64,000 nt of DNA, from the IMG/VR virus record IMGVR_UViG_3300045988_069864; one strand, 5' to 3'. Source of the DNA: a virus. The position numbers and the translations under genes are program-made. How positions within the stretch are numbered: position 1 is the stretch's first letter; each line of letters starts with the position of its first letter. Below, one piece after another: positions 4,793 through 51,875 of this stretch. The notes under the pieces were generated by a model that saw only the letters and a program-made list of their open reading frames with translations, searched no databases and was not told the origin of the DNA.

Positions 4793-4809
4793 GTGAAAGG
4801 AGGGATAGT

Positions 4810-5364
4810 ATGAAGTCTTATAATCACTCTGAAGAACTCTATCATCATGGCATCAAAGGTATGAAATGGGGTGTCCGGCGCTATCAGAATTCCGATGGTT
4901 CGCTTACTGCGGCTGGTCAGAAACGATACGCGAGAGATGCTCGAGAAAAAGAATTTAATAAGTATGATTCGTCCACTAAGACATATTACAAAACGTCTAA
5001 GAAAAATGGGCGAAGTGATTTGGAAGCAGATCCTAAACGTTATGCTAAAGAGGATCTATCTCGAACCAAAAAACTTGCTGACGAGTCAGCCAATCTTACA
5101 AGAAATCTAAAAACTGCTAATGATCAGGCTATCAAAAGTAAACCCAAGACTCGAATGGACCTTAGCAAGATGACTGACCAGGAGATGCGGGAAAAGATTA
5201 ATCGAGAATTACTTGAACGACAGTATAACGATGTCTTTAATCCTCCTACTGTTTCTAAGGGTCGGGAGTATGCAAGCAAAGTTCTCGATACTACTGGTAC
5301 TGTTTTGGCTATTACTAGTTCCGCATTGGGAATCGCCCTGGCTATTAAAGATCTTAAGGGGTGA
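4810..5364 (+). CDS. YHHG-motif paralog 1 of 4 (unknown function)
   Basis: ATG 4810 follows GAAAGGAGGG. N-terminus is ELYHHGIKGMKWGVRRYQNSDGSLTAAGQKRY. The body is Lys/Arg-rich and there is a C-terminal hydrophobic helix. Confidence 0.7.
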   Translation: MKSYNHSEELYHHGIKGMKWGVRRYQNSDGSLTAAGQKRYARDAREKEFNKYDSSTKTYYKTSKKNGRSDLEADPKRYAKEDLSRTKKLADESANLTRNLKTANDQAIKSKPKTRMDLSKMTDQEMREKINRELLERQYNDVFNPPTVSKGREYASKVLDTTGTVLAITSSALGIALAIKDLKG

Positions 5365-7207: not shown

Positions 7208-7795
7208 GTGGATTCCAGTGAACTTTACCACCATGGCGTCAAAGGCATGAAATGGGGTGTTAGGCGGTATCAGCGTGAAGATGGTACTCGTACTATTGCT
7301 GGACAGAAGCACGCTCAGACATTAACCGGCGGAGTTGCTGGTGTGATCAGAAAGAAGCAGCGCAGTAATGCTGAAAAAGACTTAGCACGAACGATCTCTA
7401 AGCAAAAGCAAGTCAATAGTGAACTGCGTGAACTTCGCGGTTATTCAAAAAACCCAAGTAAAATCGGTCGTTCAAAATTGGCTACTGCTATTCGAAATCA
7501 GCAGATTAAGTCTTTGGAACGGACCAATTCTAAGCTCGACCAGCGTAAAAAAGAGAGCACGAGCGCTTTGAAAGAGCTGAAACAGATCGATGAATATCAG
7601 GCAAAGAAAGCTGCCGACAGAGCGCAGAGGAAACTCGCTAATGCAAAGATCAAAGATCTTCAGAAGAAGTATGGGCGTCTCGAAGATCAGATGACTTATG
7701 GTAAAAACGCCGACACTAAGGCTAACGCTCGTATTCAGAAGCAGATGTCTAGTATCGACACTCAGATTAACAAGCTTAAAAAGTCTACACGATAA
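7208..7795 (+). CDS. YHHG-motif paralog 4 of 4
   Basis: GTG 7208 lies 9 nt after AAAGGAGGTGA. N-terminus is ELYHHGVKGMKWGVRRYQREDGTRTIAGQKH, followed by a K/R/Q-rich coiled-coil-like tail. Confidence 0.7.
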   Translation: MDSSELYHHGVKGMKWGVRRYQREDGTRTIAGQKHAQTLTGGVAGVIRKKQRSNAEKDLARTISKQKQVNSELRELRGYSKNPSKIGRSKLATAIRNQQIKSLERTNSKLDQRKKESTSALKELKQIDEYQAKKAADRAQRKLANAKIKDLQKKYGRLEDQMTYGKNADTKANARIQKQMSSIDTQINKLKKSTR

Positions 7796-9575: not shown

Positions 9576-10823
9576 ATGGGTTTTATAGACCGGCTTCAGC
9601 ATGGATGGAACGCATTCATGAGCAGAGCCCCCACTGGAAGCTATTACGACATTGGACAGAGCTATTCATATCGACCGGATCGAGTGGTTTTTACCCGAGG
9701 CAATGAACGTTCCATTATTACGTCGGTATACAACCGAATTGCTTTGGACGTTTCTGCAATCAATATCAAACATTGCCGTCTGGATAATAATGATCGATAC
9801 ATGTCTGTAATCGACTCTGGTTTGAATAGCTGTTTGAATCTGGAGGCTAATATCGACCAAACTGGACGAGCCTTCATCCAGGATATTGTCATGTCGATGC
9901 TGGACGAAGGTTGCGTAGCTATTGTTCCAGTCGATACGTCTATCGATCCCAAGGTGAGTAGTTCGTACGATATTTTATCGATGCGAACTGGTAAGATCTT
10001 GGATTGGTATCCGGAGCATGTGAAAGTTCGACTCTATAATGAGCGAACAGGTAATAAGGAGGAAATCATCGTCCCGAAGAAAACGGTGGCGATCATTGAG
10101 AATCCTCTTTATGCAGTGACTAATGCTCCTAACTCAACAATGCAACGTCTTATTAGGAAGCTTAGTCTACTCGACGTAACAGATGAGAAGACCGCTTCAG
10201 GTAAATTGGATTTGATCATTCAGTTGCCCTATGTTATTAAGACGGAAGCTAGACGTCAACAAGCCGAAACAAGGCGCAAAGATATCGAGATGCAGCTTGC
10301 CGGAAGTAAGTATGGTATTGCGTACACGGATGGCACTGAAAAGATCACACAGTTAAATCGTTCTGTTGAGAACAATCTTATGTCTCAGATTGAATACTTG
10401 ACGAGCATGCTTTATAGCCAGTTAGGTATCACTCAGAGTATTTTGGATGGTTCTGCAGATGAGAAAACTATGCTGAACTACCATAATCGAACTATCGAAC
10501 CAATTGTTTCTGCGATTGTTGACGAAATGAAACGAAAATTCTTAACTAAAACTGCTCGGTCACAACAGCAGTCTATCTTGTTCTTTAGAGATCCGTTTAA
10601 ACTTGTTCCGTTGAATGACATCGCTGAAATTGGCGATAAATTTACCAGAAATGAGATTATGACGTCTAATGAAATTAGGCAAATCATTGGTATGACACCG
10701 TCTAACGATCCGAAGGCTGACCAGTTGGTTAACAGTAATCTGAATCATCCCGATGAGGAGTCTATGGTACCTGCGGTTTTGACCGAAAACTCTAACGAAG
10801 GGAGAATAAATCAAAATGGTTAA
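9576..10823 (+). CDS. Portal protein
   Basis: 415 aa, immediately after TerL and before the protease-capsid gene. Its size fits HK97-type portals. Confidence 0.7.
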   Translation: MGFIDRLQHGWNAFMSRAPTGSYYDIGQSYSYRPDRVVFTRGNERSIITSVYNRIALDVSAINIKHCRLDNNDRYMSVIDSGLNSCLNLEANIDQTGRAFIQDIVMSMLDEGCVAIVPVDTSIDPKVSSSYDILSMRTGKILDWYPEHVKVRLYNERTGNKEEIIVPKKTVAIIENPLYAVTNAPNSTMQRLIRKLSLLDVTDEKTASGKLDLIIQLPYVIKTEARRQQAETRRKDIEMQLAGSKYGIAYTDGTEKITQLNRSVENNLMSQIEYLTSMLYSQLGITQSILDGSADEKTMLNYHNRTIEPIVSAIVDEMKRKFLTKTARSQQQSILFFRDPFKLVPLNDIAEIGDKFTRNEIMTSNEIRQIIGMTPSNDPKADQLVNSNLNHPDEESMVPAVLTENSNEGRINQNG

Positions 10824-12659: not shown

Positions 12660-12941
12660 ATGGCTATGATTACTATTATGGAACACGCTGACGATCAGCA
12701 CGTTCGCGCTTATGTTGTCTATGGTAAGGCCGCTGACCATAAGCTGTATTACGAGAAGGATTATAAGACTCAGGTCACCCAGGCTGATGCTGAGAACGCT
12801 TTCAAGAAGAACCTGCTGCAGATCGTGGATACTACCACTACTCTGGTTCCGGTTGCCATGACTGGTACTACTGTTAAGACTGTTGCTGGTTCCAGCACTG
12901 CTGCCACTCTGACTGATTGGGCTGTTAAGGCTGATAGCTAA
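12660..12941 (+). CDS. Small head-associated protein (hypothetical)
   Basis: Strong SD (AAGGAGG), position directly after the capsid gene, 93 aa. Confidence 0.5.
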   Translation: MAMITIMEHADDQHVRAYVVYGKAADHKLYYEKDYKTQVTQADAENAFKKNLLQIVDTTTTLVPVAMTGTTVKTVAGSSTAATLTDWAVKADS

Positions 12942-36443: not shown

Positions 36444-36544
36444 GAGAGAACAAAAGTGAACATTAGAAAGACAAATTTATAAGATGCGACCGTCTATGCC
36501 TTCGCAAGAAGGAGGGAACACATATCGCACTCTCTTTTCATTTT
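36441..36544 (+). ncRNA. ORF-less transcription unit A (candidate ~100-nt RNA)
   Basis: No SD-preceded ORF. The 5' GAAGAGAGA (36441-36449) pairs with CTCTCTTTTC (36530-36539), which precedes ATTTT. There is an internal CCTTC-GCAA-GAAGG hairpin. Confidence 0.3.
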
Positions 36545-36571
36545 CGCGAAAAAAACTTGTTCCTTTATGCA
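36543..36571 (+). promoter_or_regulatory. TTCGCG-N17-TATG motif copy 3
   Basis: TTCGCG 36543-36548 (inside the palindrome TTTTCGCGAAAA) and TATGCA 36566-36571. Confidence 0.5.
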
Positions 36572-36597
36572 AATAAAACTTTTAGGAGGAATTTATT

Positions 36598-36750
36598 ATG
36601 ATGCCTGTAGGAGCTAAAATTGTGTCGAATATTGCTATTGGAATTATTTATATATGCACGATTCCAGTTGTAGTTACGACAATCAAAGCTGTCATTGCAG
36701 AAATCAAAAATATTCTTAGCGAAGAAGCATTTGACGACGAGGAGAGCTGA
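36598..36750 (+). CDS. 50-aa membrane peptide
   Basis: ATG after TAGGAGGA. TM segment IVSNIAIGIIYICTIPVVVTTI and an acidic tail. Confidence 0.5.
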   Translation: MMPVGAKIVSNIAIGIIYICTIPVVVTTIKAVIAEIKNILSEEAFDDEES

Positions 36751-36767
36751 GCAAGCTCTTCTTTTTT
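36743..36767 (+). terminator. Intrinsic terminator
   Basis: AGAGCT-GAGCA-AGCTCT followed by TCTTTTTT. Confidence 0.7.
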
Positions 36768-36769
36768 AT

Positions 36770-36798
36770 TTCGCGTAGAAAACATCCTCCTTTATGCA
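36770..36798 (+). promoter_or_regulatory. TTCGCG-N17-TATG motif copy 4
   Basis: TTCGCG 36770-36775 and TATGCA 36793-36798. The downstream leader is nearly identical to that of copy 3 (AATAAAACTTTTAGGAGG). Confidence 0.5.
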
Positions 36799-36825
36799 GA
36801 ATAAAACTTTTAGGAGGTATTTATT

Positions 36826-37026
36826 ATGAGTAACAGTATTATTCACAAGGTATTGGATTGGACTGAGAAAACAACGAATGAACTCGATCCTAAGACTGAC
36901 AAACATGCCTACGCAAAAGCGTTTGGTTTGGGTGCCATTGAAGGATTGATTGATTCCGCTGTATTCTGGTATCTGCCATTGCTTGCATTGTGCTATTACT
37001 GGAAAGGTAAGGCTGAAAAGAAGTAA
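36826..37026 (+). CDS. 66-aa membrane protein
   Basis: Strong SD and a C-terminal TM segment (AVFWYLPLLALCYYW). Confidence 0.55.
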   Translation: MSNSIIHKVLDWTEKTTNELDPKTDKHAYAKAFGLGAIEGLIDSAVFWYLPLLALCYYWKGKAEKK

Positions 37027-37034
37027 TTCTGAGG

Positions 37035-37072
37035 TGAGGGCCATCTAAACGATGGCTCTTTCTTTTATATTT
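37035..37072 (+). terminator. Intrinsic terminator
   Basis: GAGGGCCATC-TAAAC-GATGGCTCTT followed by TCTTTTATATTTT. Confidence 0.7.
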
Positions 37073-37207
37073 TCTAATCTAGATTAAGTATCCTAACCTA
37101 GCTTTAAAAGTTCCGTACTCGGGTGACGACAAACAATGTTATTTTTATAAAGTCGAAATTTTCCCGGGTGGGATTTTTGAAAAAACAAAATGAAAGGAGG
37201 TGGGTAT

Positions 37208-37423
37208 ATGGATTACATAATTCTCTTTGTTGTCTGTATCTTGGTTAATATTGCGATCAACATTATATTTTTCGATCATAAACCATCCGGAACCCTTCGA
37301 ATCGATCATTCTAATCCTGAGAAAGATATCTATCGTTTTGAAATAAACGATTTTGATGCACTGTCCAAGAAAAAGCGAATCGTCATCAATGTGGATAACA
37401 ATGCTTATCTTTCGCAAGAGTAG
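37208..37423 (+). CDS. 71-aa membrane protein
   Basis: ATG 37208 follows AAAGGAGGTGGG. N-terminal TM segment IILFVVCILVNIAINIIFF. Confidence 0.55.
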   Translation: MDYIILFVVCILVNIAINIIFFDHKPSGTLRIDHSNPEKDIYRFEINDFDALSKKKRIVINVDNNAYLSQE

Positions 37424-37439
37424 CATGCACTATTATGGA
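37411..37439 (+). promoter_or_regulatory. TTCGCG-N17-TATG motif copy 5 (TTCGCA / TATGGA)
   Basis: TTCGCA 37411-37416 overlaps the last codons of the upstream gene. TATGGA is at 37434-37439. Confidence 0.4.
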
Positions 37440-37474
37440 ACGTAAGTTCACATATTTGAAAGGAGTAGTTATTT

Positions 37475-37858
37475 ATGAGCTACAAGACCCTGTTGAATGA
37501 AGAAATCGAAAACGAGTTCAAAGAATTAAAGAAATTGAATGTTGGCTCGGAACAGTACAAAACGGCAGTTGATGGTCTGACCAAACTGATGGACAAAAAT
37601 CTTGAGATTCAGAAGTTCGAAGCGGAACGTTCGGAGAAGGATACTAGTCATTGTGACGACTATGAACTTCAAACGAAACAGTTCGAAAGCGAACGTCGGG
37701 ATCGCATTGTGAAGAACGTCCTGACTGCGGCCGGTATCGTATTGCCGCTTGGTGTAACTATCTGGGGAACAATCGTATCGATGGATTTTGAGAAGGAGGA
37801 GACGTTTACTACGATCATGGGTCGAGGCTTTATCCAAAAGCTTCTTCCAAAGAAGTAA
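37475..37858 (+). CDS. Hypothetical 127-aa protein with one TM helix
   Basis: SD GAAAGGAG, a coiled-coil N-terminal part and TM segment VLTAAGIVLPLGVTIWGTIV. Confidence 0.6.
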   Translation: MSYKTLLNEEIENEFKELKKLNVGSEQYKTAVDGLTKLMDKNLEIQKFEAERSEKDTSHCDDYELQTKQFESERRDRIVKNVLTAAGIVLPLGVTIWGTIVSMDFEKEETFTTIMGRGFIQKLLPKK

Positions 37859-37870
37859 GAACTAAGTTTT

Positions 37871-37903
37871 AAGAAGGGGCCGTGGAAACATGGTCTCTTC
37901 TTT
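37871..37903 (+). terminator. Intrinsic terminator (GAAACATGG-loop family)
   Basis: AAGAAGGGGCC-GTGGAAACATGG-TCTCTTCTT followed by TTT. Confidence 0.55.
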
Positions 37904-37932
37904 TTCGCGAAATTTACAGCGTGTATTATGAG
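37904..37932 (+). promoter_or_regulatory. TTCGCG-N17-TATG motif copy 6
   Basis: TTCGCG 37904-37909 and TATGAG 37927-37932. Heads ORF-less unit D. Confidence 0.5.
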
Positions 37933-38080
37933 AGAAAGCAATGGATAAATGCTGGTGGAAATCCAGCGGTGAGACACGAAGGCGGTGCGCCAAGTAATAA
38001 CTTAATAAAAGATGCACCCTACCGGGCAACGGTTTTCGTTGGGCCGACCCTGAAGTCATTACTTTCTCTCTTTTATTTTT
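37930..38080 (+). ncRNA. ORF-less unit D (candidate ~150-nt structured RNA or terminator-containing leader of gene 38109)
   Basis: The 5' GAGAGAAAG (37930-37938) is the perfect complement of CTTTCTCTC (38062-38070), which precedes TTTTATTTTT. Internal hairpins are GCTGG..CCAGC, GGCG-GTG-CGCC and CGGGCAACG..CGTTGGGCCG. Confidence 0.35.
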
Positions 38081-38108
38081 ACAAAACTTTTACAAGGAGA
38101 GGATTGTC

Positions 38109-38850
38109 ATGAGATTACGTCCCAGGCTTAGAAAGATTCATTAAAAAGAATGGAGCAACTATTCTAACTGGTATCGGGGTCACCGGAGTTGTGGCTACTT
38201 CAGTTTTAGTCGGTAAAGCTACATTCAAAGCTTCCGAAATTTTAGAAGAAACCAAGAAAGAAAAAGGTGGAAAACTGGAAACTATGGAAGCCGTTAAACT
38301 TGTAGCTCCGGTTTATATTCCGTCAATCGTAATGGGCGCATCTACTATTGCTTGTATTCTTGGTGCGAACGTACTGAACAGACATCATCAAGCAGCTTTA
38401 ACTAGTGCGTATGCGTTTGTTGATCAATCTTTCAAAGAGTACAAAGCAAAAGTTACTGAATTGTATGGTGAAGAAGCCGATCAAGCAGTAGAAGAGGCAA
38501 TCGAGCAAGATCATGTTTCAGGAGAAAACGATCTTCAATTATTCTATGATGAATTATCAGACCGATATTTTGAATCTACGCCATACAGAGTCCAAAGAGC
38601 AGAATACGAGTTGAATAGAAATATGCTTAAGCGAGACTATGCATACTTGAATGAATGGTATGAAGAATTAGACCTAGACATCGTAGAGAACGGCTATGCT
38701 TTAGGTTGGTCTACATTCCAATGTATGGAAATGTACTGGCAACCATGGATTGACTTCGATCACTATTCATTCACCACTGAAGATGGTCGAGAATGTATGG
38801 GACTTTGCATTATCCAACAACCGATCTTAGATTTTGAGGATTATTGCTAA
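38109..38850 (+). CDS. TM-anchored paralog A (family of 3); needs a +1 shift at CCC-AGG-C (38121-38127), or is a pseudogene
   Basis: ATG 38109 lies 7 nt after AAGGAGAGG, and the zero frame stops at 38144. The +1 frame from 38113 encodes GLERFIKKNGATILTGIGVTGVV, which aligns with paralogs B and C. Confidence 0.5.
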
Positions 38851-38879
38851 TTCGCGATAGAAACTCCTTCTTTAATGAA
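38851..38879 (+). promoter_or_regulatory. TTCGCG-N17-TATG motif copy 7 (AATGAA)
   Basis: TTCGCG 38851-38856 starts 1 nt after the stop of the upstream gene. AATGAA is at 38874-38879. Confidence 0.45.
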
Positions 38880-38903
38880 AGATATTTAAAGGAGGAACCT
38901 ACT

Positions 38904-39203
38904 ATGTTAAACAAACAAGTTAAAAACCTATTCGAAAGCGAAAAGATGGCTAGAAACATAGAAAACTTTGTGGAAAATATCTACATTGACCAGCTTGTAC
39001 GAGATGATCTCGGAGTTGAAGAGAAAGAAGACATTGCCAAAAGAGCTAAGGAACATTTAGCTAATATGGGAAAGTACGAAGAACAAAACTCTGAGTACTG
39101 GTACAAGTATGGCATTATTGAAGGTGAAATCAAAGGTATGTGGAAAGCTATTGGTGTCTTTGCAGTAAGTTATGCACTTGGAGCTTTACTATTTAGAAAA
39201 TGA
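38904..39203 (+). CDS. Hypothetical 99-aa protein with C-terminal TM helix
   Basis: ATG 38904 follows AAAGGAGGA. C-terminal segment AIGVFAVSYALGALLF. Confidence 0.55.
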   Translation: MLNKQVKNLFESEKMARNIENFVENIYIDQLVRDDLGVEEKEDIAKRAKEHLANMGKYEEQNSEYWYKYGIIEGEIKGMWKAIGVFAVSYALGALLFRK

Positions 39204-39216
39204 CTTAAAATCTTTC

Positions 39217-39256
39217 AAGGGGAGGGTCCTTGGTCGGACTCTTCCTTTTATTTTTC
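39217..39256 (+). terminator. Terminator-like hairpin
   Basis: AAGGGGAGGGTCC..GGACTCTTCCTT imperfect stem followed by TTATTTTT. Confidence 0.5.
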
Positions 39257-39267
39257 CGGAGATAACA

Positions 39268-39624
39268 ATGAGATACCATTATGAAAAACCAGCTATATAT
39301 TCGTCTAAATATGGTGCTACATATACATGTAACCATCCAGTTTACAATAAATGTACTTTATATTTAATTGACGGGAAAGGATTAGCCGTAATCCAGCAGC
39401 GATGTGACGATGAAAAACGAACCTGGTGGGATGAGATAGATCCATGGTTAACTAATGAATTATATTTACATCCAAGATTCAAAAAATTCTTCGATACTCG
39501 CGCAGGAAAGCATGACGAGGGATTATATCCAACTGTGACCATTAGACAAATAATGTGGGCATTAAGAATGAAACCTTTAAAACGTGAGCGATGGGAAACA
39601 TGTTTTGATAAAAAAGATATTTAG
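39268..39624 (+). CDS. Hypothetical 118-aa protein
   Basis: ATG 39268 follows GGAG. No recognisable motif. Confidence 0.5.
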   Translation: MRYHYEKPAIYSSKYGATYTCNHPVYNKCTLYLIDGKGLAVIQQRCDDEKRTWWDEIDPWLTNELYLHPRFKKFFDTRAGKHDEGLYPTVTIRQIMWALRMKPLKRERWETCFDKKDI

Positions 39625-39625
39625 T

Positions 39626-39654
39626 TTCGCGATGAAAACATTTTCCTTTATGAG
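39626..39654 (+). promoter_or_regulatory. TTCGCG-N17-TATG motif copy 8
   Basis: TTCGCG 39626-39631 starts 2 nt after the upstream stop. TATGAG is at 39649-39654. Confidence 0.5.
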
Positions 39655-39685
39655 AAAATAAACTTTCTGAAAAGGAGAAAGGAAT

Positions 39686-39910
39686 ATGTTTGACATTATG
39701 CAAATCAAAACTAAATTCATGAGAGGCATGATCGCAAAATTGATCGGAATAGCAATTAAGAACAAATTGGGCTGTAAGATTAAAGTCCAATTTGACGATA
39801 TTGATATTCGCATCGATGACGAGATTGCTCACGTACATGTGAACGGTGGATTTGACATGAAAGTCGACGATCTAAAAAAGTTCACAAAGTTTATCGACGA
39901 AGAGGACTGA
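39686..39910 (+). CDS. Hypothetical 74-aa protein
   Basis: SD AAAGGAG, 74 aa. Confidence 0.55.
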   Translation: MFDIMQIKTKFMRGMIAKLIGIAIKNKLGCKIKVQFDDIDIRIDDEIAHVHVNGGFDMKVDDLKKFTKFIDEED

Positions 39911-39937
39911 GCTAGCAATAGCTCTTCCTTTTGATAT
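39909..39937 (+). terminator. Intrinsic terminator
   Basis: GAGCTA-GCAA-TAGCTC (GNRA loop) followed by TTCCTTTTGATATTT. Confidence 0.65.
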
Positions 39938-39966
39938 TTCGCAAAAATTACAAGCTGTATTATGAG
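39938..39966 (+). promoter_or_regulatory. TTCGCG-N17-TATG motif copy 9 (TTCGCA)
   Basis: TTCGCA 39938-39943 and TATGAG 39961-39966. The SD (AAAGGAGG) follows immediately. Confidence 0.45.
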
Positions 39967-39983
39967 AAAGGAGGTAATGCTTT

Positions 39984-40130
39984 ATGAACGGAACTACATT
40001 GAAAATTATCAAAACTACTCTTACCGTTATCGGTTTGGGCGTAAATATCGCCTCTACCGTTTTGGCAGAGAAAGAACTTGATGTTAAGATTGCAAAAGCT
40101 GTTAGCAAAGCAGTTACCCGCCACAAGTAA
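39984..40130 (+). CDS. 48-aa membrane peptide
   Basis: ATG 39984, TM segment LKIIKTTLTVIGLGVNIASTVL. Below the track cutoff. Confidence 0.45.
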   Translation: MNGTTLKIIKTTLTVIGLGVNIASTVLAEKELDVKIAKAVSKAVTRHK

Positions 40131-40132
40131 TG

Positions 40133-40164
40133 AGAGGGGCCCACATCGGGCCTCTTTTATTTTT
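40133..40164 (+). terminator. Intrinsic terminator
   Basis: AGAGGGGCCC-ACATC-GGGCCTCT followed by TTTATTTTT. Confidence 0.7.
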
Positions 40165-40187
40165 CCACAAATGAAAGGAGTTTAACT

Positions 40188-40961
40188 ATGAACGCATCAA
40201 TCGTAACTAATTTTATCAAAAGCATTAGAAGTACCGCGACTAAGCATAGTCCTGAAATTCTCACTGGCATCGGCATTGCTGGTATGGTTACTACTACCGT
40301 ATTGGCTGTACGAGCTACTCCGAAAGCTATGACGCTCATCGAGGATAAGAAAGAGGAATTGAAAACCGAAAAATTGCCGGTGATAGAAACCGTAAAAACA
40401 ACGTGGAAATGCTATATTCCGGCGGTTATCACTGGTGCTCTTTCTGTTTCTTGTCTTGTAGGCGCAAGTGCGACTAACCTGAAACGTAATGCAGCTCTTG
40501 CTACTGCATATAAACTGTCTGAAACAGCTCTTAGTGAGTATAAGGACGCAGTAGTTGAGACTATTGGCGAGAAAAAGATGCAGGACGTTAAAGATAAAGT
40601 TGCTGAAAAACAGCTTGAGAGAAGTTCTGCTACTAGATCTGACGTGATTGTTGAGGGTAAGGGTACTACACTTTGCTGCGAAGGTTTCACTGGCAGACGT
40701 TTCTATTGCGATATGGACACATTGAAGAAAGCTGAGAACGAACTCAACCGTAATATTATTAACAACATGTATCAATCTTTGAATGATTTCTACGATTTAC
40801 TTGGGGTTGAATACAGTGAAATGGGTGACGAACTTGGCTGGAATCTTGATAGCGGGACAATTGAATTAAGTTTTAGTTCTCAGCTTACTAGTGATGGTCG
40901 TCCTTGCCTTGTTTATGACTTTAATCATGCCCCGGAGTATAACTTTTCCAACTTTCTATGA
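40188..40961 (+). CDS. TM-anchored paralog B (unknown function)
   Basis: 257 aa with an N-terminal TM segment (ILTGIGIAGMVTTTVLAV). Blocks shared with A and C: RNAALA.AY....EY...V.E..G and LN..Y..LG.....G..LGW. Confidence 0.65.
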   Translation: MNASIVTNFIKSIRSTATKHSPEILTGIGIAGMVTTTVLAVRATPKAMTLIEDKKEELKTEKLPVIETVKTTWKCYIPAVITGALSVSCLVGASATNLKRNAALATAYKLSETALSEYKDAVVETIGEKKMQDVKDKVAEKQLERSSATRSDVIVEGKGTTLCCEGFTGRRFYCDMDTLKKAENELNRNIINNMYQSLNDFYDLLGVEYSEMGDELGWNLDSGTIELSFSSQLTSDGRPCLVYDFNHAPEYNFSNFL

Positions 40962-40994
40962 TTGGTTTACACCATATATTCCGTACTATATACG

Positions 40995-41023
40995 TCCGCG
41001 AAATTTGCAAGTTATTTTATGAG
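40995..41023 (+). promoter_or_regulatory. TTCGCG-N17-TATG motif copy 10 (TCCGCG)
   Basis: TCCGCG 40995-41000 and TATGAG 41018-41023. Confidence 0.45.
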
Positions 41024-41065
41024 AAGCAGATAGCTTCCGTTATATTTCGAAAGGAGTAATTAATC

Positions 41066-41338
41066 ATGAGTGAAAATGTTGAAATGAATGCAGTTGAGGT
41101 CAAGGAAACTGTCGAAACCAAAAAGAACTTTGGTTCCAAACTTATCGATGGCATCAAGGAGCATAAGAAGGAAATCGCAGGTATTGCGGTGACCGCCGTA
41201 TGCAGCTATGCCGCATATAAGTATGGTGTCAAGGTCGGACTTAAAAAGATCGACGTTAAACCTGTCATCGAAGCTGTAGCTGACACTGACATTGGCGACG
41301 TGGTTGAGGACGTTATTGAAGACACAACGGAAATCTGA
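41066..41338 (+). CDS. Hypothetical 90-aa protein with central TM helix and acidic tail
   Basis: SD GAAAGGAG, TM segment IAGIAVTAVCSYAAY. Confidence 0.55.
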   Translation: MSENVEMNAVEVKETVETKKNFGSKLIDGIKEHKKEIAGIAVTAVCSYAAYKYGVKVGLKKIDVKPVIEAVADTDIGDVVEDVIEDTTEI

Positions 41339-41345
41339 TTACTAA

Positions 41346-41390
41346 AAGGGGAGGCACCCATAACAAGGTGCTTTCCCTTTTTACTTTTTG
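41346..41390 (+). terminator. Intrinsic terminator
   Basis: AAGGGGAGGCACC-loop-GGTGCTTTCCCTT followed by TTTACTTTTT. Confidence 0.65.
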
Positions 41391-41399
41391 GAGGTTAGG

Positions 41400-41600
41400 A
41401 TGAGCGAGTATCATCGATATGTTTATATAGGCCCGGTGTTGTTATTTGACAGCTGCATCACTGGAAATTGGAAAGCAGAGACAATGGCTGTCTCTAAAGA
41501 GAAAGCTTTGAGTAATCTCAAACATCAATATAAGAAAAAACAACGATTGGCAGTTAATTCCAAAATTGATTTGCCTGGAAAATTAAAAGCTGTCGATTAA
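41400..41600 (+). CDS. Hypothetical 66-aa protein
   Basis: ATG 41400 follows GGAGGTTAGG. Confidence 0.45.
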   Translation: MSEYHRYVYIGPVLLFDSCITGNWKAETMAVSKEKALSNLKHQYKKKQRLAVNSKIDLPGKLKAVD

Positions 41601-41614
41601 AGGAGGCATTTATC

Positions 41615-42226
41615 ATGGATGATTTTAAACCAAACTCTCACCGTTTCAAAGAAGAACAGAACAACCTGCCCGCATTGCCGGAGCCAAAGAAAGTTGAAAA
41701 GGTTGTAACTGGCACCGTTAAAACTCGAAAGAAAACTGAGTTTGACAAGATCAAAGAAACGTTTATTTCCGAAGACGCTCGTAATATCAAAAGTTTTGTG
41801 ATTGACGACGTTCTTATTCCGTCCATCAAGAAAGCGATCAGCGATATTGTTGTTAATAGTATCGACATGCTCCTTTATGGAGATAGTGGTAGACCTAATA
41901 GACGTACTACTGTAACTGATCGTTTCTCTTATGATCAATGCAGTCGAAATCGTACTACTAGAACTGAATCTCGTGGACGTTCCGGGTATGACTTCGATGA
42001 TATTGTTCTCGAGACTAGGGGTGAAGCTGAAGCTGTCTTGTCTCAAATGGATGCAATTATTGATACTTACGGTGTGGCGAAAGTATCTGACTTGTATGAT
42101 CTTGTCGGTAAAACTTGCGCTTACACTGATAATAAATACGGTTGGACCAATCTTCGCAATGCCGAACCGATTCGAGTTCGTGATGGATATTTGTTGAAGA
42201 TGCCCAAAGCAATTCCCATTGATTAA
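41615..42226 (+). CDS. Hypothetical 203-aa protein
   Basis: SD AAAGGAGG. Conserved-looking C-terminal block YGVAKVSDLYDLVGK....DNKYGW, but no function can be assigned. Confidence 0.6.
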   Translation: MDDFKPNSHRFKEEQNNLPALPEPKKVEKVVTGTVKTRKKTEFDKIKETFISEDARNIKSFVIDDVLIPSIKKAISDIVVNSIDMLLYGDSGRPNRRTTVTDRFSYDQCSRNRTTRTESRGRSGYDFDDIVLETRGEAEAVLSQMDAIIDTYGVAKVSDLYDLVGKTCAYTDNKYGWTNLRNAEPIRVRDGYLLKMPKAIPID

Positions 42227-42236
42227 GGAGTAACAA

Positions 42237-42578
42237 ATGATTAGGAATGATATTTTGGAAAAGGCTCGTTCTATCATTAACGGTGAGCGAGCCGGTACTT
42301 ATGGTAAAGCGGAAGATAGCTTTGCTACCATTGCCCAAATGTGGAGCGCATATTTGGACCATCCGGTTACTAGTGCCGATGTGGCAAATATGATGATTCT
42401 TTTGAAAATTGCTCGTAATTCCAGTGGTGTTTATAAGGATGACAATTGGATTGATATTTGTGGCTATGCGGCTTTGGGTGCCGAAATTCAGAGCGATGCA
42501 AGTAAAACAGAATTTGGAAAAATGTATTCTGAAACTATCGCGGCCATGAAAAAATATGCTAATAACGAAAAGGAGTAA
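42237..42578 (+). CDS. Hypothetical protein (GER..YG / LK.AR pattern, DUF6378-like)
   Basis: INGERAGTYGKAEDSFATIAQMW...ADVANMMILLKIAR matches a small family common in phages. I am recalling the family name from memory. Confidence 0.5.
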   Translation: MIRNDILEKARSIINGERAGTYGKAEDSFATIAQMWSAYLDHPVTSADVANMMILLKIARNSSGVYKDDNWIDICGYAALGAEIQSDASKTEFGKMYSETIAAMKKYANNEKE

Positions 42579-42584
42579 TGAACT

Positions 42585-43511
42585 ATGAAATTCAATGATA
42601 TTATGGCGAGTGCATCTCGTACGTTCAGCAAGGTAAGTCTGCAGGGCAAGAAGTATGCACCCGAGGTTATGATTGTTGTCGGTGTCGTTGGTGTTGTAGC
42701 CAGTGCTGTTATGGCATGCAAAGCCACTACTAAGGCCGGTGCTATTGTAGAAGATACCAAGGATCAGATGGATCAGATCCATGAAGTAGCTGAAACTCAT
42801 GCTGAGGAATATTCTGAAGACGATATGAAGAAAGACACTGTCATCGTCTACACTCAGACTGCTGTCAAATTCGCAAAACTGTACGGTCCAGCGGTTATTC
42901 TTGGCGCTGCTTCTATCGCATGCATCCTTGGTTCTCATCATATTTTGAGTAAACGTAATGCTGCTTTGGCTGCTGCTTACGCAACTGTGGATAAAGGATT
43001 TAAAGAATACCGTGGTCGTGTAATCGAGCGTTTCGGCAGGGAACTCGATAAAGAACTTCGCTATAATGTCAAGGCGAAAGACTTTGAGGAAACTGTAGTC
43101 AACGAAGAAACCGGTGAAGAGACTAAAGTTACGAACACTGTAAACGTAGCTGATCCTAATGATTATAGTGACTATGCTCGTTTCTTTGATGATGGATGCA
43201 CTGGTTGGACCAAGGATTCTGAGCAGAATTTATATTTCCTGAAATGTCAGCAGAACTATGCTAATGAGCGTCTTCAGAAAAAAGGCTATTTGTTCCTGAA
43301 TGATGTGTATGAAATGCTTGGTATTCCTAAGACCAAGGCTGGTCAGATTGTTGGTTGGATCTATGACAAGAAGAATCCTGTAGGCGACAACTTTGTAGAT
43401 TTCGGCATTTACAACATGAACCGTGAGAAAGCTCGCGACTTTGTTAACGGTTATGAACGCACTATCCTGCTTGACTTCAATGTCGATGGTAATATTCTCG
43501 ACTTGATCTAA
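42585..43511 (+). CDS. TM-anchored paralog C (unknown function)
   Basis: 308 aa with an N-terminal TM segment (VMIVVGVVGVVASAVMA) and the same conserved blocks as paralogs A and B. Confidence 0.65.
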   Translation: MKFNDIMASASRTFSKVSLQGKKYAPEVMIVVGVVGVVASAVMACKATTKAGAIVEDTKDQMDQIHEVAETHAEEYSEDDMKKDTVIVYTQTAVKFAKLYGPAVILGAASIACILGSHHILSKRNAALAAAYATVDKGFKEYRGRVIERFGRELDKELRYNVKAKDFEETVVNEETGEETKVTNTVNVADPNDYSDYARFFDDGCTGWTKDSEQNLYFLKCQQNYANERLQKKGYLFLNDVYEMLGIPKTKAGQIVGWIYDKKNPVGDNFVDFGIYNMNREKARDFVNGYERTILLDFNVDGNILDLI

Positions 43512-43518
43512 TCTCAAA

Positions 43519-43562
43519 TTACCTTTGTCTCTTTGCTAGCGGAGACAGGGGTAATTATATTT
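43519..43562 (+). terminator. Terminator-like hairpin
   Basis: TTACCTTTGTCTC-loop-GAGACAGGGGTAA followed by TTATATTT, a weak T-run. Confidence 0.45.
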
Positions 43563-43578
43563 GAAAGGAGTGACTTAA

Positions 43579-43806
43579 ATGACTGGGCGAGATCTGATCG
43601 TGTATATTCTTCAGAACAATCTTGAAGATACAGACGTGGACTCCATTATGTCATCGGTTTTCATTGATGAGGAAAAAGTTGCTAAGAAGTTTAACGTTGG
43701 TGTTGCAACGGTAAGAACTTGGTATGCTCTTGGAATCATTAGAGGTTTCGAGGACCATAACAAGTTATATTTCCCAATCACCATTAAAGATCCTAGAAAG
43801 GAATGA
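43579..43806 (+). CDS. Small HTH DNA-binding protein
   Basis: 75 aa. VAKKFNVGVATVRTWYALGII resembles a MerR/excisionase-type HTH. Confidence 0.5.
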   Translation: MTGRDLIVYILQNNLEDTDVDSIMSSVFIDEEKVAKKFNVGVATVRTWYALGIIRGFEDHNKLYFPITIKDPRKE

Positions 43807-43898
43807 GCAATATGCTAAAAACCCTAGAAGCAGTTTTTGCAGTAATGTCAGCTCTATGTCTTGCTAGTGGTATCGCAATCCTACACGGAAGGGGCTGA
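43803..43898 (+). CDS. 31-aa membrane peptide (tentative)
   Basis: ATGA overlap with the upstream stop. Segment LEAVFAVMSALCLASGIAIL. Confidence 0.3.
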   Translation: MSNMLKTLEAVFAVMSALCLASGIAILHGRG

Positions 43899-43902
43899 TC
43901 TT

Positions 43903-44049
43903 ATGGACAGATTCGAAGAGATTCTATCTATTATAGATGAAGCATTAAACACAAAACGGAAGCGTCATATTGTTGGTGGAGTTCTTTTGAGTACCGCATT
44001 ACTTTTCGGGAGGCTTAGCTTTCACCGTTATAACGTTACGAGAGGATGA
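43903..44049 (+). CDS. 48-aa protein with TM segment (tentative)
   Basis: ATG 43903 follows GGAAGGGG. Overlaps the next start. Confidence 0.3.
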   Translation: MDRFEEILSIIDEALNTKRKRHIVGGVLLSTALLFGRLSFHRYNVTRG

Positions 44050-44627
44050 AGATGATGGGAGATAAAATTGTAAAACTTCTTATATTTGGAGTAGGTGCTG
44101 CTATCGGTTCGGTCGTAACTTGGAAACTTGTAAAAACAAAATATAAGCGAATTGCAGACGAAGAGATCGAGTCTGTGAAAAAAATCTACAATTATAAAAA
44201 GATCGCTGAAGAACACGCAGCAAAGCCTGAAGTTAAGGTTCAAAATGTTGTTGAAGTTGAGCCAAAGGTTAACCAGGATCGTGTCGATTATTCGAAGTTA
44301 ACCGTGGATCTTGGTTATACAAATGAATCTAAGGAAGGAGGAGAGGACATGCATGAGAAGCCCTATGTGATTGCTCCAGAAGAATTCGGCGAAATGGATG
44401 ACTACGAAACTGTTAGTCTGACATACTATTCCGATGGTGTTTTGACTGACGACTTTGACAATGAGATTGAAGATGTCGAAGGTATGGTCGGTGAAGATTC
44501 GCTGGATCATTTTGGTGAGTATGAGGACGACTCTGTCTTTGTACGAAATGACCGATATAAAACCGATTATGAAATTCTTCTGGATCTTCGTAAGTATTCT
44601 GATGTTAAAAAGTCCAATCCTAATTAA
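44046..44627 (+). CDS. Hypothetical 193-aa protein, N-terminal TM helix and acidic C-terminal half
   Basis: Clean ORF with TM segment IVKLLIFGVGAAIGSVVTW. Confidence 0.6.
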   Translation: MKMMGDKIVKLLIFGVGAAIGSVVTWKLVKTKYKRIADEEIESVKKIYNYKKIAEEHAAKPEVKVQNVVEVEPKVNQDRVDYSKLTVDLGYTNESKEGGEDMHEKPYVIAPEEFGEMDDYETVSLTYYSDGVLTDDFDNEIEDVEGMVGEDSLDHFGEYEDDSVFVRNDRYKTDYEILLDLRKYSDVKKSNPN

Positions 44628-45483: not shown

Positions 45484-48400
45484 GTGCTTGATTTCTTGCT
45501 GATTTCAACAAGATCCAAGAAGCAAGGAGTCGTCGAGGTATATCCTAAGTTCGTGATAAAGAAAAGTAAGGACTTAATGATCCGAGGCGGCGATTTCTAT
45601 GCTGTTTGGATCGAGGATCGGGGCTTGTGGTCCACAGATGAGCAGGACGCTTTATATTTGATTGACCAAGCGTTGGATGCATACGCAAATGATTATAAAC
45701 AGAAAACTTCTGATACGGTCATAACCCTTCATTTGTGGGATGCTGGCTCAGGAATGATTGACGCTTGGCATAAGTATTGTCAGAAGCAGATGCGTGATAA
45801 CTTCCACATGCTTGATGAAAAATTGATATTCTTGAACACTCCTACGAATAAGAAGGATTATGCAAGTAAAAAGCTCAATTATTCTCTTGAACCTGGCAGC
45901 ATTGATGCATATGAGAAGATCATTTCTACCTTATATTCTCCAGAAGAGCGCCACAAGATTGAATGGGCTATTGGGTCTATTATCGAAGGCGATTCGAAAA
46001 CGATTCAGAAATTTGTAGTCTTTTACGGTTCAATGGGCACAGGTAAATCTACGATTCTGAATATTATTCAACAGTTATTTGAGGGTTACTATTCGGTCTT
46101 TGATGCTAAGGCATTGGGATCGTCTAGTAACTCTTTTGCTTTGGAGCCGTTCAAAAACAATCCTCTTGTGGCTATTCAACATGATGGTGACTTATCGAAA
46201 ATCGAAGATAACACTCGTTTAAACAGTCTGGTTTCTCACGAGATGATGACCGTGAATGAGAAGTTTAAGTCTGCATATTCTAATCGATTTAAATGTTTCT
46301 TGTTCATGGGTACGAATAATCCTGTGAAGATTACTGACGGTAAATCCGGTTTGATTCGAAGACTGATTGATGTATCTCCATCTGGAAACAAGTTGAAGCC
46401 AAAAGAGTATAAGGCTGCTGTAAAGCAGGTGTCGTTTGAACTTGGAGCTATAGCAAGCCATTGTCATGAGGTATATTTAGACGATCCTGGAGCATACGAT
46501 GACTATATTCCGGTTGCAATGCTGGGAGCATCAAACGACTTCTACAACTTTATTGTCGATAACTATCATATTTTCAAGAAAGACGATGGAACGACACTGA
46601 AAGCTGCTTGGGAGATGTATAAAGTATATTGTGATGAGGCGAAGGTTCCTTTCTCGTTGAGTAAGATGAAATTCAAGGAGGAATTGAAGAACTATTTCTG
46701 GGACTTCAAAGAACGATTCGTAGCAGAAGATGGATCTCGTGTACGTAGCTACTACACAGGATTCAGAACTGATAAATTTGAAAACGAAATTGAAGATCCA
46801 AAAATTCCCAGGGAGGAAAAACCGTGGATTCAATTCAATTCGACGGAATCTATATTTGACAAAGAATGCGCGGATTGCTTTGCACAGTATGCTTCGTCAA
46901 AAGAGACTCCGAGTAAAAAATGGGATGACGTAACTTCTACTCTGAAAGATTTGGATACAACAAAGCTTCATTATGTGAAAGTTCCGGAGAATCATATAGT
47001 GATCGACTTCGATATTCCAGATGAGAAAGGAGAGAAGTCGCTTGAGAGAAACCTTGCTGCTGCTTCTTCTTGGCCTACTACTTATGCGGAACTTTCTAAA
47101 AGTGGTGCGGGTATCCACCTACATTATGTTTACGCTGGCGATGTTACTCGCCTTAGTCGGGTGTACGATGATCATATTGAAATAAAAGTATTTAACGGAA
47201 AAAGCTCGCTGAGGCGCAAATTAACCAAATGCAATGATATTCCGATCGCGACTATTAACTCCGGGTTGCCGTTGAAGGAGGATGCAAAATTGATTAATAA
47301 AGACGTAGTTCAGACTGAAAAAGGTCTTCGAACTACTATTAAGAAATGCCTAAACAAAGAGGTTCATCCGAACACGAGATGTAATGTTGATTTCATCAAT
47401 GATATTTTGACTAAAGCCTATGATAGTGGAATTTCATATGACGTATCTGATATGAAAAATGCTGTAATTGCTTTTGCAGCACAAAGCACCAATCAATCGG
47501 ACTATTGCATCAAGCTCGTCAATAGGATGAAATTCAAGTCGGACGAACCTTCAGTTAATAAAGAAGATGAGTCAGCAGACCTGGTCTTTTACGATGTAGA
47601 GGTCTTCCCGAACTTATTCCTTGTGAACTGGAAAATTGCTGGCGAAGGAAAACCGGTAGTCCGAATGATCAATCCTAAGCCGAGTGAGATTGAGGATTTA
47701 CTGAGATTCAAACTTGTTGGCTTTAACTGTCGTCGTTACGACAATCACATGCTTTATGCCAGAATGATTGGCTATACAACCGAGCAGTTGTATGAATTGT
47801 CTCAAAAGATCATTAACACCAAGAAAGGTACTAAAGGCGTATTCTTCGGTGAAGCCTATAACCTCTCGTACACTGATATTTACGACTTCGCTTCTGCCGG
47901 TAACAAAAAGAGCTTGAAGAAACTCGAGATCGAGATGGGTATCCATCATCAGGAGCTCGGACTTCCTTGGGATCAGCCGGTACCGAAAGAAAGATGGATT
48001 GAGGTTGCTGAATATTGCGATAATGACGTTATTGCGACCGAGGCAGCATTCAACTATCTGAAAGCGGATTGGACTGCTCGAGAAATTCTGGCTGACTTGG
48101 CTGGCATGACGGTTAATGATACGACTAACAGTCTCACAACCAAGATTATATTTGGTAACAACAAGAAACCCCAAGGATCTTTCTGTTATCGAGATATGTC
48201 GAAACCGGTCACGGCACTTGATCCGGAAGTCGAAGCATTCTTGAACATGGCTTGTCCCGAAATGATGCAGGCTGCTACTGATGAATCTTATCTCCCATAT
48301 TTTCCTGGGTACAAATTCGAGGGTGGCAAGTCTACTTACCGTGAGGAAGAAGTCGGTGAGGGTGGCTATGTATATTCTGAACCTGGCATATATTTCGATG

Positions 48401-50826: not shown

Positions 50827-50901
50827 GGGCCATTAGCTTAAGGGTAAAGCTGGCAGCTCATAACTGCTTGAGTGCGGGTTCGAATCCTGCATGGCCCACC
50901 A
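50827..50901 (+). tRNA. tRNA with anticodon CAT (elongator Met or Ile2-type), CCA encoded
   Basis: Hand fold: 7-bp acceptor stem (GGGCCAT/ATGGCCC), 4-bp D stem, anticodon stem GGCAG/CTGCT with loop CTCATAA, 5-nt variable loop, T arm GCGGG-TTCGAAT-CCTGC, then ACCA. Confidence 0.85.
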
Positions 50902-51052: not shown

Positions 51053-51266
51053 ATGGCACGAATTATGTTCACTAATCAGAAATGCCCTATTTGTGGGAGG
51101 CGAAGTTCATTATCCAGTCGGTTATAATCCAAAGACGGCTAAAGATCATGGGAATGTCGAATGGATTGTAACTAAAAGAGGTTTAAAACAATTCTTTCAT
51201 ACTAATTGCTATTGGGCTTTAATTGAAGCACAAAAGATCGAAACCGAGATGAATTCTCATGACTAA
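51053..51266 (+). CDS. Zinc-finger-like 70-aa protein; needs a +1 shift at GGG-AGG-C (51095-51101), or is a pseudogene
   Basis: The zero frame gives MARIMFTNQKCPICG then stops at 51127. The +1 frame continues GEVHYPVGYNPKTAKDHGNVEWIVTKRGLKQFFHTNCYW... to TAA at 51266. Total length is 3n+1. Confidence 0.45.
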
Positions 51267-51430: not shown

Positions 51431-51875
51431 ATGTTAGCACAAGCTTATCACGACTTACAGGAAAAACAACGACAAGAGATTAATGACTTCCCTATTGCTT
51501 ATGCATTCAGTAATGAACAATTAAAAGAAGCCCTTGTGAAGCTGAGGCAATGTTGAATTATCCGATTGCTGCACTGTAATGAATCATGGCGATATTATGC
51601 TGAAAAAAGACGCTAAACGTTTCATTGAAATGTTGAGACGTCATAATCAAGAAGTTCATGACTTACTCATGAGCAGCGATGATATTGCCTATGAAACATT
51701 CGTGTACGAAATGGATAATCATGAATACGCCATCAACTGGGATGGTGATTATGATGTATTGTGCTCTTTAGGATTAGATGCAAAAGACTTGGAAGACATG
51801 GGACTGCAATGTATCTACCAAAAAGCAAGACATGAACATCTGCGTAAAGCTCATGAAGAATGGGAGATTATTTGA
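51431..51875 (+). CDS. 148-aa protein; needs a +1 shift at CTG-AGG-C (51542-51548), or is a pseudogene
   Basis: Zero frame 51431-51556 ends ..KEALVKLRQC*. The frame of track ORF 51579 is open from 51546. Joining at L-G gives ..FSNEQLKEALVKLGNVELSD..DIMLKKDAKRF... The two halves look like one protein family. Confidence 0.5.

Follow-up and report, generated by a model that had tools for sequence, protein, structure and literature searches.

The phage record IMGVR_UViG_3300045988_069864, of which a stretch of 64,000 nucleotides (nt) was analyzed (the whole stretch is called the window here), carries a DUF6353 membrane protein gene that is divided between two reading frames just after its start. 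We consider it likely that this gene, the first DUF6353 paralog of the window, is expressed via a programmed +1 ribosomal frameshift at codons 5 and 6, where the zero frame reads CCC-AGG-C (site 1; Table 1). The same pattern, XXX-AGG-C, interrupts further genes of the window and of its relatives, and the argument below moves from the one old and conserved site to these younger ones.

The zero frame of the gene reads in full ATG AGA TTA CGT CCC AGG CTT AGA AAG ATT CAT TAA. A preliminary description made from the sequence alone had placed the start at ATG 38109 and the zero-frame stop after 11 codons at 38142-38144, and direct reading confirmed both. The strong Shine-Dalgarno sequence that it reported is also present, with a spacer of 6 nt in place of the 7 nt given there. 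The identical sequence AAGGAGAGG precedes the ATG in L001, L003, L006, and L029, while L005 and L030 carry GGGAGATGG. In the +1 frame, a TGA at 38110-38112 is followed by an open frame from 38113, as had been described, to the TAA at 38848-38850. The two open frames overlap from 38113 to 38141, and the change from the zero to the +1 frame is needed inside that interval. Joining them at CCC-(A)-GGC gives a protein of 246 amino acids (aa) with an N-terminal transmembrane helix and the N terminus MRLRPGLER, the predicted junction peptide being LRPGLER. The earlier proposal that re-pairing from CCC to CCA, with GGC read next, restores a full-length paralog is thereby upheld: the joined product covers positions 1-252 of the 253 in the PF19880 profile (E = 2.7e-67; 227 bits against a cut-off of 25), and it alone gives a whole-domain match above the gathering threshold. 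NCBIfam had no family for any of the four joined proteins discussed in this work. The first canonical start in the +1 frame, GTG 38191, does cut the transmembrane helix as had been noted; a protein begun there would lack residues 1-27, which make up most of the first hydrophobic helix and include PF19880 profile positions 1 to ~18.

The joined protein was searched against 5.8 billion protein clusters, and the DNA of the orthologs was then fetched from Logan, ENA, and IMG/VR. All clusters with at least 62% identity (P0001-P0004, P0006, P0009, and P0011, with 62 member sequences) are called as truncated proteins of 179 to 221 aa. The window's own 90% cluster has 40 members from more than 130 contigs, and no listed member is longer than 219 aa. 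The sole full-length close relative, at 61% identity, is P0005 (L004), whose DNA reads ATG AGA CTA TAT CCA GGC TTG, without the extra C, and whose protein begins MRLYP-GLKVF. Seven distinct and diverged orthologs, obtained from various samples and by various assemblers, have an ATG, three codons, and then CCC AGG C/T, and at least 11 independent assemblies carry the site-1 break. The codons flanking the heptamer differ among the seven (CGT, CAT, or AAA before it, CTT or TGT after it), and CCCAGG is invariant, the seventh base being C or T. The skipped A, which is non-coding, is invariant as well. Skipping it yields a protein of 246 or 247 aa in each of the seven interrupted orthologs, and the frame so restored is free of additional stops and indels. 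The peptide from the zero frame measures 11, 12, or 35 aa, and neither its length nor the position of its stop is conserved.

This recurrence bears directly on whether the extra base could be an artefact of sequencing or assembly, an idea that we find scarcely credible. It is true that the insertions at sites 1, 2, and 4 could be explained as a CC or GG run lengthened by one base. However, the same base is found across many studies and assemblers (metaSPAdes NODE, MEGAHIT k141, Logan, and IMG/VR) and in orthologs with diverged flanks, and the insertion at site 3, an A flanked by G's, extends no homopolymer. Neighbour joining groups the interrupted genes, which in pairs are as little as 60% identical, in a single clade whose sister is the intact L004; the topology points to one ancient C insertion that turned CCA GGC into CCC AGG C.

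Two measures of selection were taken on the seven orthologs. The ratio of nonsynonymous to synonymous substitution rates (dN/dS) by the Nei-Gojobori method (NG86) in the +1 frame was 0.05 to 0.48 for residues 6-28, which lie upstream of any canonical start, and 0.03 to 0.21 for the remainder of the gene, with underlying dS values that were mostly above 0.6 and often saturated. At 33 four-fold degenerate sites the residue is conserved in all seven; the third base is invariant at two of these, one of which is the CCC of the shift site, so the background without that codon is 1 in 32. The alignment thus indicates that CCC-AGG-Y is conserved beyond the requirement of the protein and that the +1 frame is under purifying selection. 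From 38113 to 38190, no ortholog has a canonical start in the +1 frame. A non-canonical +1-frame start in this interval was considered and rejected, there being no conserved start-like codon in it. By this evidence, ribosomes clearly read the segment that encodes the helix, 5' of the called starts, in the +1 frame.

The same segment argues against a simpler account, in which an N-terminally truncated protein is made from an internal start (GTG 38191) and the frame from ATG 38109 to TAA 38144 is an unrelated leader peptide or upstream open reading frame (ORF). Gene callers have annotated every database copy in this manner (the seven clusters named above), and a leader function is conceivable for a short upstream ORF that follows a strong Shine-Dalgarno sequence. 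We nevertheless judge this account very improbable. The internal start is a different one in each ortholog (MATSV, MLTGK, MTGK, MEALK, MVATSV, or MYIPS), and those starts that were read have no Shine-Dalgarno sequence. In the +1 frame, the 66 nt 5' of GTG 38191 contain no stop and bear the mark of purifying selection, and they encode the conserved first transmembrane helix of the family (Pfam positions 1 to ~18), while the upstream ORF is conserved in neither length nor sequence. Nor is the site-1 break a decaying pseudogene, for none of the seven orthologs displays relaxed constraint or additional disabling mutations.

Codon usage was counted in 32 confident genes of the window, comprising 13,372 codons. 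AGG occurs 34 times, which is 6% of Arg codons and makes it the second-rarest sense codon in the phage genes; CCC is the fourth-rarest codon (12% of Pro), and GGG accounts for 6% of Gly. Together, GGT and GGC make up 73% of Gly codons, and the abundance of the tRNA reading them is gauged by this codon-usage proxy only. The first +1 codon is GGC or GGT in all seven site-1 orthologs and GGC at every other site. By its codon usage, the heptamer therefore joins a rare, re-pairable P-site codon, a rare A-site codon, and a common +1 codon. From what is observed, namely, the anatomy of the gene, a conserved heptamer, a +1 frame under selection, repeated occurrence, and rare codons, we infer a ribosomal event, together with the tRNAs involved, its efficiency, and its regulatory purpose, along the following lines. 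A ribosome would initiate at ATG 38109 and reach the point at which CCC occupies the P site and AGG the A site. While tRNA-Arg(CCU) is awaited, the peptidyl-tRNA-Pro, probably a U34 isoacceptor that pairs poorly with CCC, would slip by one base from CCC to CCA. An abundant tRNA-Gly(GCC) would then decode GGC or GGT in the new frame, and translation would proceed to the full 246-aa membrane protein; ribosomes that fail to shift would release the 11-aa peptide. The position of the site at codons 5-6 may enhance the pause. The shift would probably cap the output of the protein and may couple that output to the supply of Arg-tRNA(CCU).

Several observations weigh against a programmed shift. No stimulatory RNA structure was detected at site 1 (RNAalifold, -6.7 kcal/mol; covariation, -0.5; single-sequence z, +1.44), and no internal Shine-Dalgarno sequence was found near it, the initiation Shine-Dalgarno sequence lying ~18 nt 5' of CCC. 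The output may be low, since the bare heptamer shifts only ~5% in Escherichia coli, and the reading of AGG and of CCC-AGG-G in frame elsewhere in the phage implies that the site is not highly efficient everywhere. The long retention of the break could also reflect frameshifting that is tolerated and not advantageous. Finally, the first 31 nt of the gene (38109-38139) are identical in the window and in L005 (9922-9952), with two differences in L030, although the genes are 64 to 69% identical overall, with ~66% for the window against L005, and dS is saturated. This shared 5' end may reflect additional nucleotide-level constraint around the shift site, or it may have come about by recombination at the 5' end.

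The preliminary description had counted three interrupted genes in the window, and the other two that it listed are real; a fourth, at 44008-44014, raises the number. Site 2 interrupts a zinc-ribbon gene (CPIC...HTNC) whose intact homologs, at 74 to 87% identity, read CPIC(K/N/G)(N/H/G)EVHYP; the predicted junction peptide is CPICGGEVHYPVGYNPK. Here the gene is broken only within the window's strain group. Because L035 reads TGC GGA GGC GAT where the window has TGT GGG AGG CGA A, site 2 is probably a G insertion into GGA GGC. Site 3 lies in a DUF7659 gene, and its junction is pinned to Leu-Gly by the +1-frame TGA (51543-51545) that the inserted A created. Leu-Gly matches the intact homologs, which read KLGNVELSDCCTV, and the predicted junction peptide is LGNVELSDCCTVMNHGDIMLK; relatives with no more than 79% identity have an unbroken gene. 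Re-pairing in the P site is not possible at site 3, since one base on from CTG-A stands TGA (CUG to UGA). The DUF7659 gene of L034 has a second break at 10242-10252 (about 51815-51825 of the window), where it reads CAAAAAAGC and the window reads CAAAAAGC; this extra A in an A-run truncates the conserved C terminus RKAHEEWEII. Site 4 lies in a small transmembrane protein gene, within ...TTC GGG AGG CTT AGC..., and the frames end at TGA 44047-44049 (zero) and TAA 44063-44065 (+1). Its joined product aligns with the C terminus of the intact homologs in L022 and L005 (GGLAFT.ITL..ED..DGR), whereas the zero-frame tail does not; the intact counterparts read TTT GGT GGG CTT in L022 and TTT GGA GGT CTG in L005. 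The break is common to the window, L003, L032, and L034, and the predicted junction peptide is HIVGGVLLSTALLFGGLAFTVITLR. The hungry-codon architecture that had been assigned to all the interrupted genes is supported at site 1, whose heptamer is identical to one studied in Escherichia coli, and its re-pairing element extends to sites 2 and 4, but it does not hold at site 3, where CTG is not re-pairable.

Table 1. Coordinates in the window of the interrupted genes, their elements, and related features
Feature	Position	Strand	Remarks
Shine-Dalgarno sequence AAGGAGAGG	38094..38102	+	6-nt spacer to ATG 38109; read directly
Zero-frame opening ATG AGA TTA CGT CCC (M R L R P)	38109..38123	+	CCC is codon 5 in 7/7 interrupted orthologs
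Site 1, candidate shift heptamer CCC-AGG-C	38121..38127	+	Codons 5-6; A38124 skipped, GGC next
+1-frame body of DUF6353 gene (GGC ... TAA)	38125..38850	+	Pfam PF19880, PHROG 2152
Zero-frame stop TAA	38142..38144	+	Terminates 11-aa peptide MRLRPRLRKIH
Intact DUF6353 paralog	40188..40961	+	257 aa
Intact DUF6353 paralog	42585..43511	+	308 aa
Site 4, interrupted small transmembrane protein gene	43903..44065	+	ATG 43903; GGG-AGG-C at 44008-44014; joined 53 aa
CCC-AGG-G in frame	46807..46813	+	In 1325-aa DUF5906 gene, no shift needed; +1 codon is the rare GGG
CTG-AGG-C in frame	47209..47215	+	Same heptamer as site 3; read through in the same essential, primase-like gene
tRNA-Met (CAU)	50827-50901		Between SSB gene and interrupted zinc-ribbon gene; sole tRNA of the window
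Site 2, interrupted zinc-ribbon gene (CPIC...HTNC)	51053..51266	+	GGG-AGG-C at 51095-51101; joined 70 aa
Site 3, interrupted DUF7659 gene	51431..51875	+	CTG-AGG-C at 51542-51548; joined 147 aa; PF24692 spans junction

These sites bring out the most serious alternative to a programmed shift, namely, that the breaks are leaky frameshift mutations, or "savior indels," that are tolerated in the shift-prone context XXX-AGG-C and that persist neutrally or on the way to gene loss. The interruption is kept in seven diverged orthologs at site 1, but that is not so for sites 2 and 3, which were found only in strains that are 97 to 99% identical to the window in DNA; relatives at 79 to 87% protein identity are intact at both and have no AGG there. 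Since site 3 combines a P-site codon that cannot re-pair in the +1 frame, a heptamer that is read in frame at 47209, and the second frame break of L034, it may be a leaky pseudogene or a dying gene. There is also a laboratory precedent in which CCC-AGG-C was itself a suppressed mutation (PMC7022156). It is at sites 2 to 4, and at site 3 in particular, that tolerated leakage is the most likely reading; overall, we think it unlikely. The site-1 break has survived divergence to 60% protein identity and saturated dS with its heptamer invariant and with strong selection in the +1 frame, and there are no revertants among the 62 member sequences, even though the loss of a single base from CCC would be enough to put the gene back in frame. 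Downstream of site 4, the window and L003 differ by two substitutions that postdate the break; both are synonymous when read in the +1 frame and nonsynonymous in the zero frame. To judge from the sequences, sites 2 and 4 look like young insertions that are corrected by the ribosome, and site 1 looks like a frameshift that has been fixed and is used.

Two further breaks were found in zinc-ribbon genes of relatives, L033 (Logan SRR29752461) and L035 (ENA ERZ27237429). Both read CAT/TAT TAT CCT CCC AGG CTA..., with CCC-AGG-C at a different codon from that of site 2 in the window, and the +1 frame restores PGYNPK or PGYDPK. L033 and L035 are each sister to an intact gene at 91% identity, and the two events are therefore independent. 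In all, there are six independent breaks that require a +1 shift, every one at XXX-AGG-C: one in the DUF6353 clade, three in zinc-ribbon genes, and one each in the genes for the small transmembrane protein and DUF7659. The P-site codon is re-pairable (CCC or GGG) in five of these six, in that re-pairing one base on is possible from CCC-A to CCA (site 1, L033, and L035) and from GGG-A to GGA (sites 2 and 4), the isoacceptors being presumed.

Chance expectation was modeled with 160,464 simulated single-base insertions across the 32 window genes. A random insertion leaves any in-frame AGG-Y in the permissible shift window in 6.9% of cases and any in-frame AGG-C in 3.1%; an AGG-Y at which skipping the A restores the exact ancestral sequence results in 0.54%, and such an AGG-C in 0.19%. 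For the three events that were found after the hypothesis had been formed (site 4, L033, and L035), the probability of arising by chance is below ~1e-4 under the lenient criterion. The original suggestion that the shared AGG-C pattern exceeds chance is strengthened by the new sites. The plus strand of the window contains seven (CCC/GGG)AGG(C/T) strings; three are in frame in real genes, and all three need the shift. A homology-based scan of the window revealed no other +1 or -1 frame break. The same scan in the relatives gave only L033, L035, the extra A in L034, and a case in L010 (IMGVR_UViG_3300029358_000292), and whole-genome comparison with MT835495 and MT835485 found the structural genes without further breaks. 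Scans of IMG/VR for the zinc-ribbon YPPGY site, interrupted or intact, found nothing. We suggest that one-base insertions (CCA GGC to CCC AGG C; GGA GGC to GGG AGG C) may repeatedly create such sites and propose that these insertions survive because the ribosome corrects them.

A few observations made along the way stand apart from these counts. The case in L010 (4030-4071) reads TGC AAA AAA AGG GAA, where an A7 run gives AAA-AGG-G and a +1 shift is required; MT835485 has the gene unbroken, and the break may represent either a homopolymer error or a further AGG site that is capable of slippage. A 539-nt contig in ENA (P0260) has a zinc-ribbon member called MWDLSAVGYNPK..., the C terminus of which is fused to DUF7659-like sequence; it has the appearance of a deletion variant, for which a -1 and not a +1 frame change would be required. 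As for rejected candidates, CCC-AGG-C at 12778 is out of frame in a real gene (12660-12941), and the in-frame matches to (CCC/GGG)-AGG-Y that came up on the minus strand and in the relatives seem to be antisense shadow ORFs. A scan of ORF geometry for NNN-AGG-N frame transitions was abandoned as a source of sites, being swamped by Shine-Dalgarno sequences at gene starts.

AGG-C is also read in frame, at 7262, 10272, 10677, and 47212. The preliminary description had offered the instances at 10677 and 7262 as counter-examples, and these are real; two more in-frame heptamers are at 46807 and 47209. CCC-AGG-G at 46807 is not conserved, being CCC-CGG in L034 and absent in more distant relatives, and CTG-AGG-C at 47209 is present in close strains only, other relatives having CTT AGA C or CTT CGA A. 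The in-frame AGG-C codons matter for a further alternative, in which a host or phage tRNA with an enlarged anticodon loop decodes CCCA or AGGC four bases at a time, or in which transcriptional slippage or editing removes one base from the mRNA. The sequence requirements of such events overlap those of a P-site slip, and quadruplet reading of AGGY and CCCCU has been proposed for the mitochondrial cox1 of Perkinsus (PMC5009743). However, the only tRNA of the window is a tRNA-Met, and the four in-frame occurrences of AGG-C argue against a general quadruplet decoding of AGGC. Moreover, runs of three C or G should be far too short for slippage by RNA polymerase. This alternative strikes us as even a shade less probable than an internal start, and the P-site slip is the reading that we retain.

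The window represents nearly the entire genome of a temperate siphovirus-like phage of ~65 kb and ~40% G+C that originates from human gut metagenomes. Near-identical contigs include IMGVR_UViG_3300045988_029432 and ENA OOZQ01000135, among others. The minus strand at 33-35 kb carries a serine recombinase and a repressor, and plus-strand early and replication genes come next. No tRNA-Arg, tRNA-Pro, or tRNA-Gly is encoded in the window. The host is probably a gut Firmicute rather than Escherichia coli. A megablast of positions 36500-44000 against the phage collection gave zero matches, and a corrected degenerate DNA pattern used to scan species-representative genomes found no prophage; in IMG/VR and metagenomes, the same pattern found only near-identical contigs. 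No isolate phage and no prophage of the species-representative genomes matched the window. The large terminase (7810-9555) has 79 to 81% aa identity over its full length to the terminases of phages of high-G+C Streptomyces and Rhodococcus, a conservation that is unusually high across very different hosts, given a gut phage of ~40% G+C. Three neighboring ORFs (4789-5364, 6451-7170, and 7208-7795) have a nearly identical 5'-proximal stretch, CACCATGGCGTCAAAGGCATGAAATGGGGTGT, encoding roughly HHG(I/V)KGMKWGV, and look like paralogs with a conserved N-terminal motif. At 37174-37190, the length of an A-run varies among near-identical strains (GAAAAAAC in the window, GAAAAAAAAC in L021); this run, just 5' of the Shine-Dalgarno sequence and ATG of a 77-aa gene at 37190, is probably non-coding.

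Public gene calls for these proteins are wrong, being truncated at spurious GTG, TTG, or ATG starts or split, and for site 1 alone this affects the 62 member sequences. Frameshift predictors could include (CCC/GGG)-AGG-GGY as a +1 motif. A bolder idea, which we put forward tentatively and think more doubtful than probable, is that (CCC/GGG)-AGG-GGY is a general and efficient +1 signal in a host with poor decoding of AGG and that it makes early genes a sensor of Arg-tRNA(CCU) supply or growth state. If so, the sensor genes would be those for the DUF6353 membrane protein, the small transmembrane protein, the zinc-ribbon protein, and DUF7659; new sites would be born continually by one-base insertions, so that programmed frameshifting could be watched directly in nature as it comes into being.

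The closest known counterpart is the rpoB gene of Escherichia coli, in which a +1 insertion was suppressed by a +1 shift at CCC-AGG-C, as established by liquid chromatography-tandem mass spectrometry and reporters (Huseby et al. 2020, PMC7022156). Those 7 nt are sufficient for a basal +1 shifting of 5%, which rises with demand for tRNA-Arg(CCU) and falls when extra tRNA-Arg(CCU) is supplied (PMC7022156). The shift is driven by the UGG tRNA-Pro (PMC7022156), which pairs weakly with CCC (PMC4519876). The phage site has the identical heptamer and the same proposed slip of tRNA-Pro from CCC to CCA during the wait on a rare AGG; it likewise lacks a stimulator in the form of structure or Shine-Dalgarno sequence, and it likewise appears to have originated in a one-base insertion that brought CCC-AGG into frame. 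It differs in that rpoB was a laboratory-selected mutant of an essential bacterial gene, while the phage genes are natural and the break is kept across a diverged clade. The phage site also stands at codons 5-6, beside the start codon. Huseby et al. proposed that programmed frameshifting evolves from spontaneously suppressed insertions (PMC7022156), and the phage group, in which an old, fixed site occurs next to younger, polymorphic XXX-AGG-C breaks of at least five independent origins, supplies evidence of the sort that they envisaged.

In yeast, Ty1 and ABP140 shift to the +1 frame at CUU-AGG-C, where a weak, re-pairable P-site tRNA meets a hungry AGG and GGC is read next (PMC5009743). The proposed three-part logic of P-site re-pairing, hungry AGG, and abundant tRNA-Gly on GGC is shared. 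However, the yeast systems are eukaryotic and have CUU, read by tRNA-Leu (UAG), in the P site, whereas the phage is bacterial and has CCC or GGG; Ty1 moreover makes two functional products, Gag and Gag-Pol, while the zero-frame product of the phage gene is short and not conserved. Listeria phages PSA, A118, and A500 shift by +1 at CCC_UGA and ACA_CCC_(UCC) in structural genes (PMC5009743). These are also phages of low-G+C Gram-positive hosts with the rare Pro codon CCC as the slippery P-site codon. Their A site holds the stop codon UGA or UCC, and the shift, near the 3' end, yields C-terminally extended capsid or tail proteins; here, in contrast, a sense codon (AGG) occupies the A site, the heptamer lies at the 5' end, and no functional product would be made without the shift. 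A genome with several frame breaks at AGG(Y) and CCC is also known, in which AGGY resolves to Gly (PMC5009743). There, every AGG and CCC shifts and the codons are effectively unassigned, while the phage also uses both normally.

In prfB, the gene for release factor 2 (RF2), an autoregulatory +1 shift takes place at CUU-UGA-C with the aid of the stop codon and an internal Shine-Dalgarno sequence 3 nt upstream. The two cases would be alike as bacterial +1 shifts that are obligatory for the full-length protein and in which a slow A site permits a P-site slip, and in both, expression could report the supply of the decoder of the A-site codon. Site 1 is nevertheless not prfB-like, because AGG is not a stop codon and the variable upstream codons (CGT, CAT, or AAA) contain no Shine-Dalgarno-like element; it is also not structure-stimulated. 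Within the library of papers that was searched, neither an account of a natural, conserved CCC-AGG-Y site in phages or bacteria nor any paper that mentions DUF6353 came to light. To our knowledge, few natural bacterial or phage +1 sites with a hungry sense codon are known, the known ones using stop codons (prfB and CCC_UGA in Listeria phages), and we know of CCC-AGG-C only from the laboratory-selected Escherichia coli mutant. On the strength of these comparisons, we read site 1 as a natural case of the known hungry-codon +1 mechanism of Ty1 and rpoB; what appears to set it apart is that the signal has been born repeatedly within one phage group.

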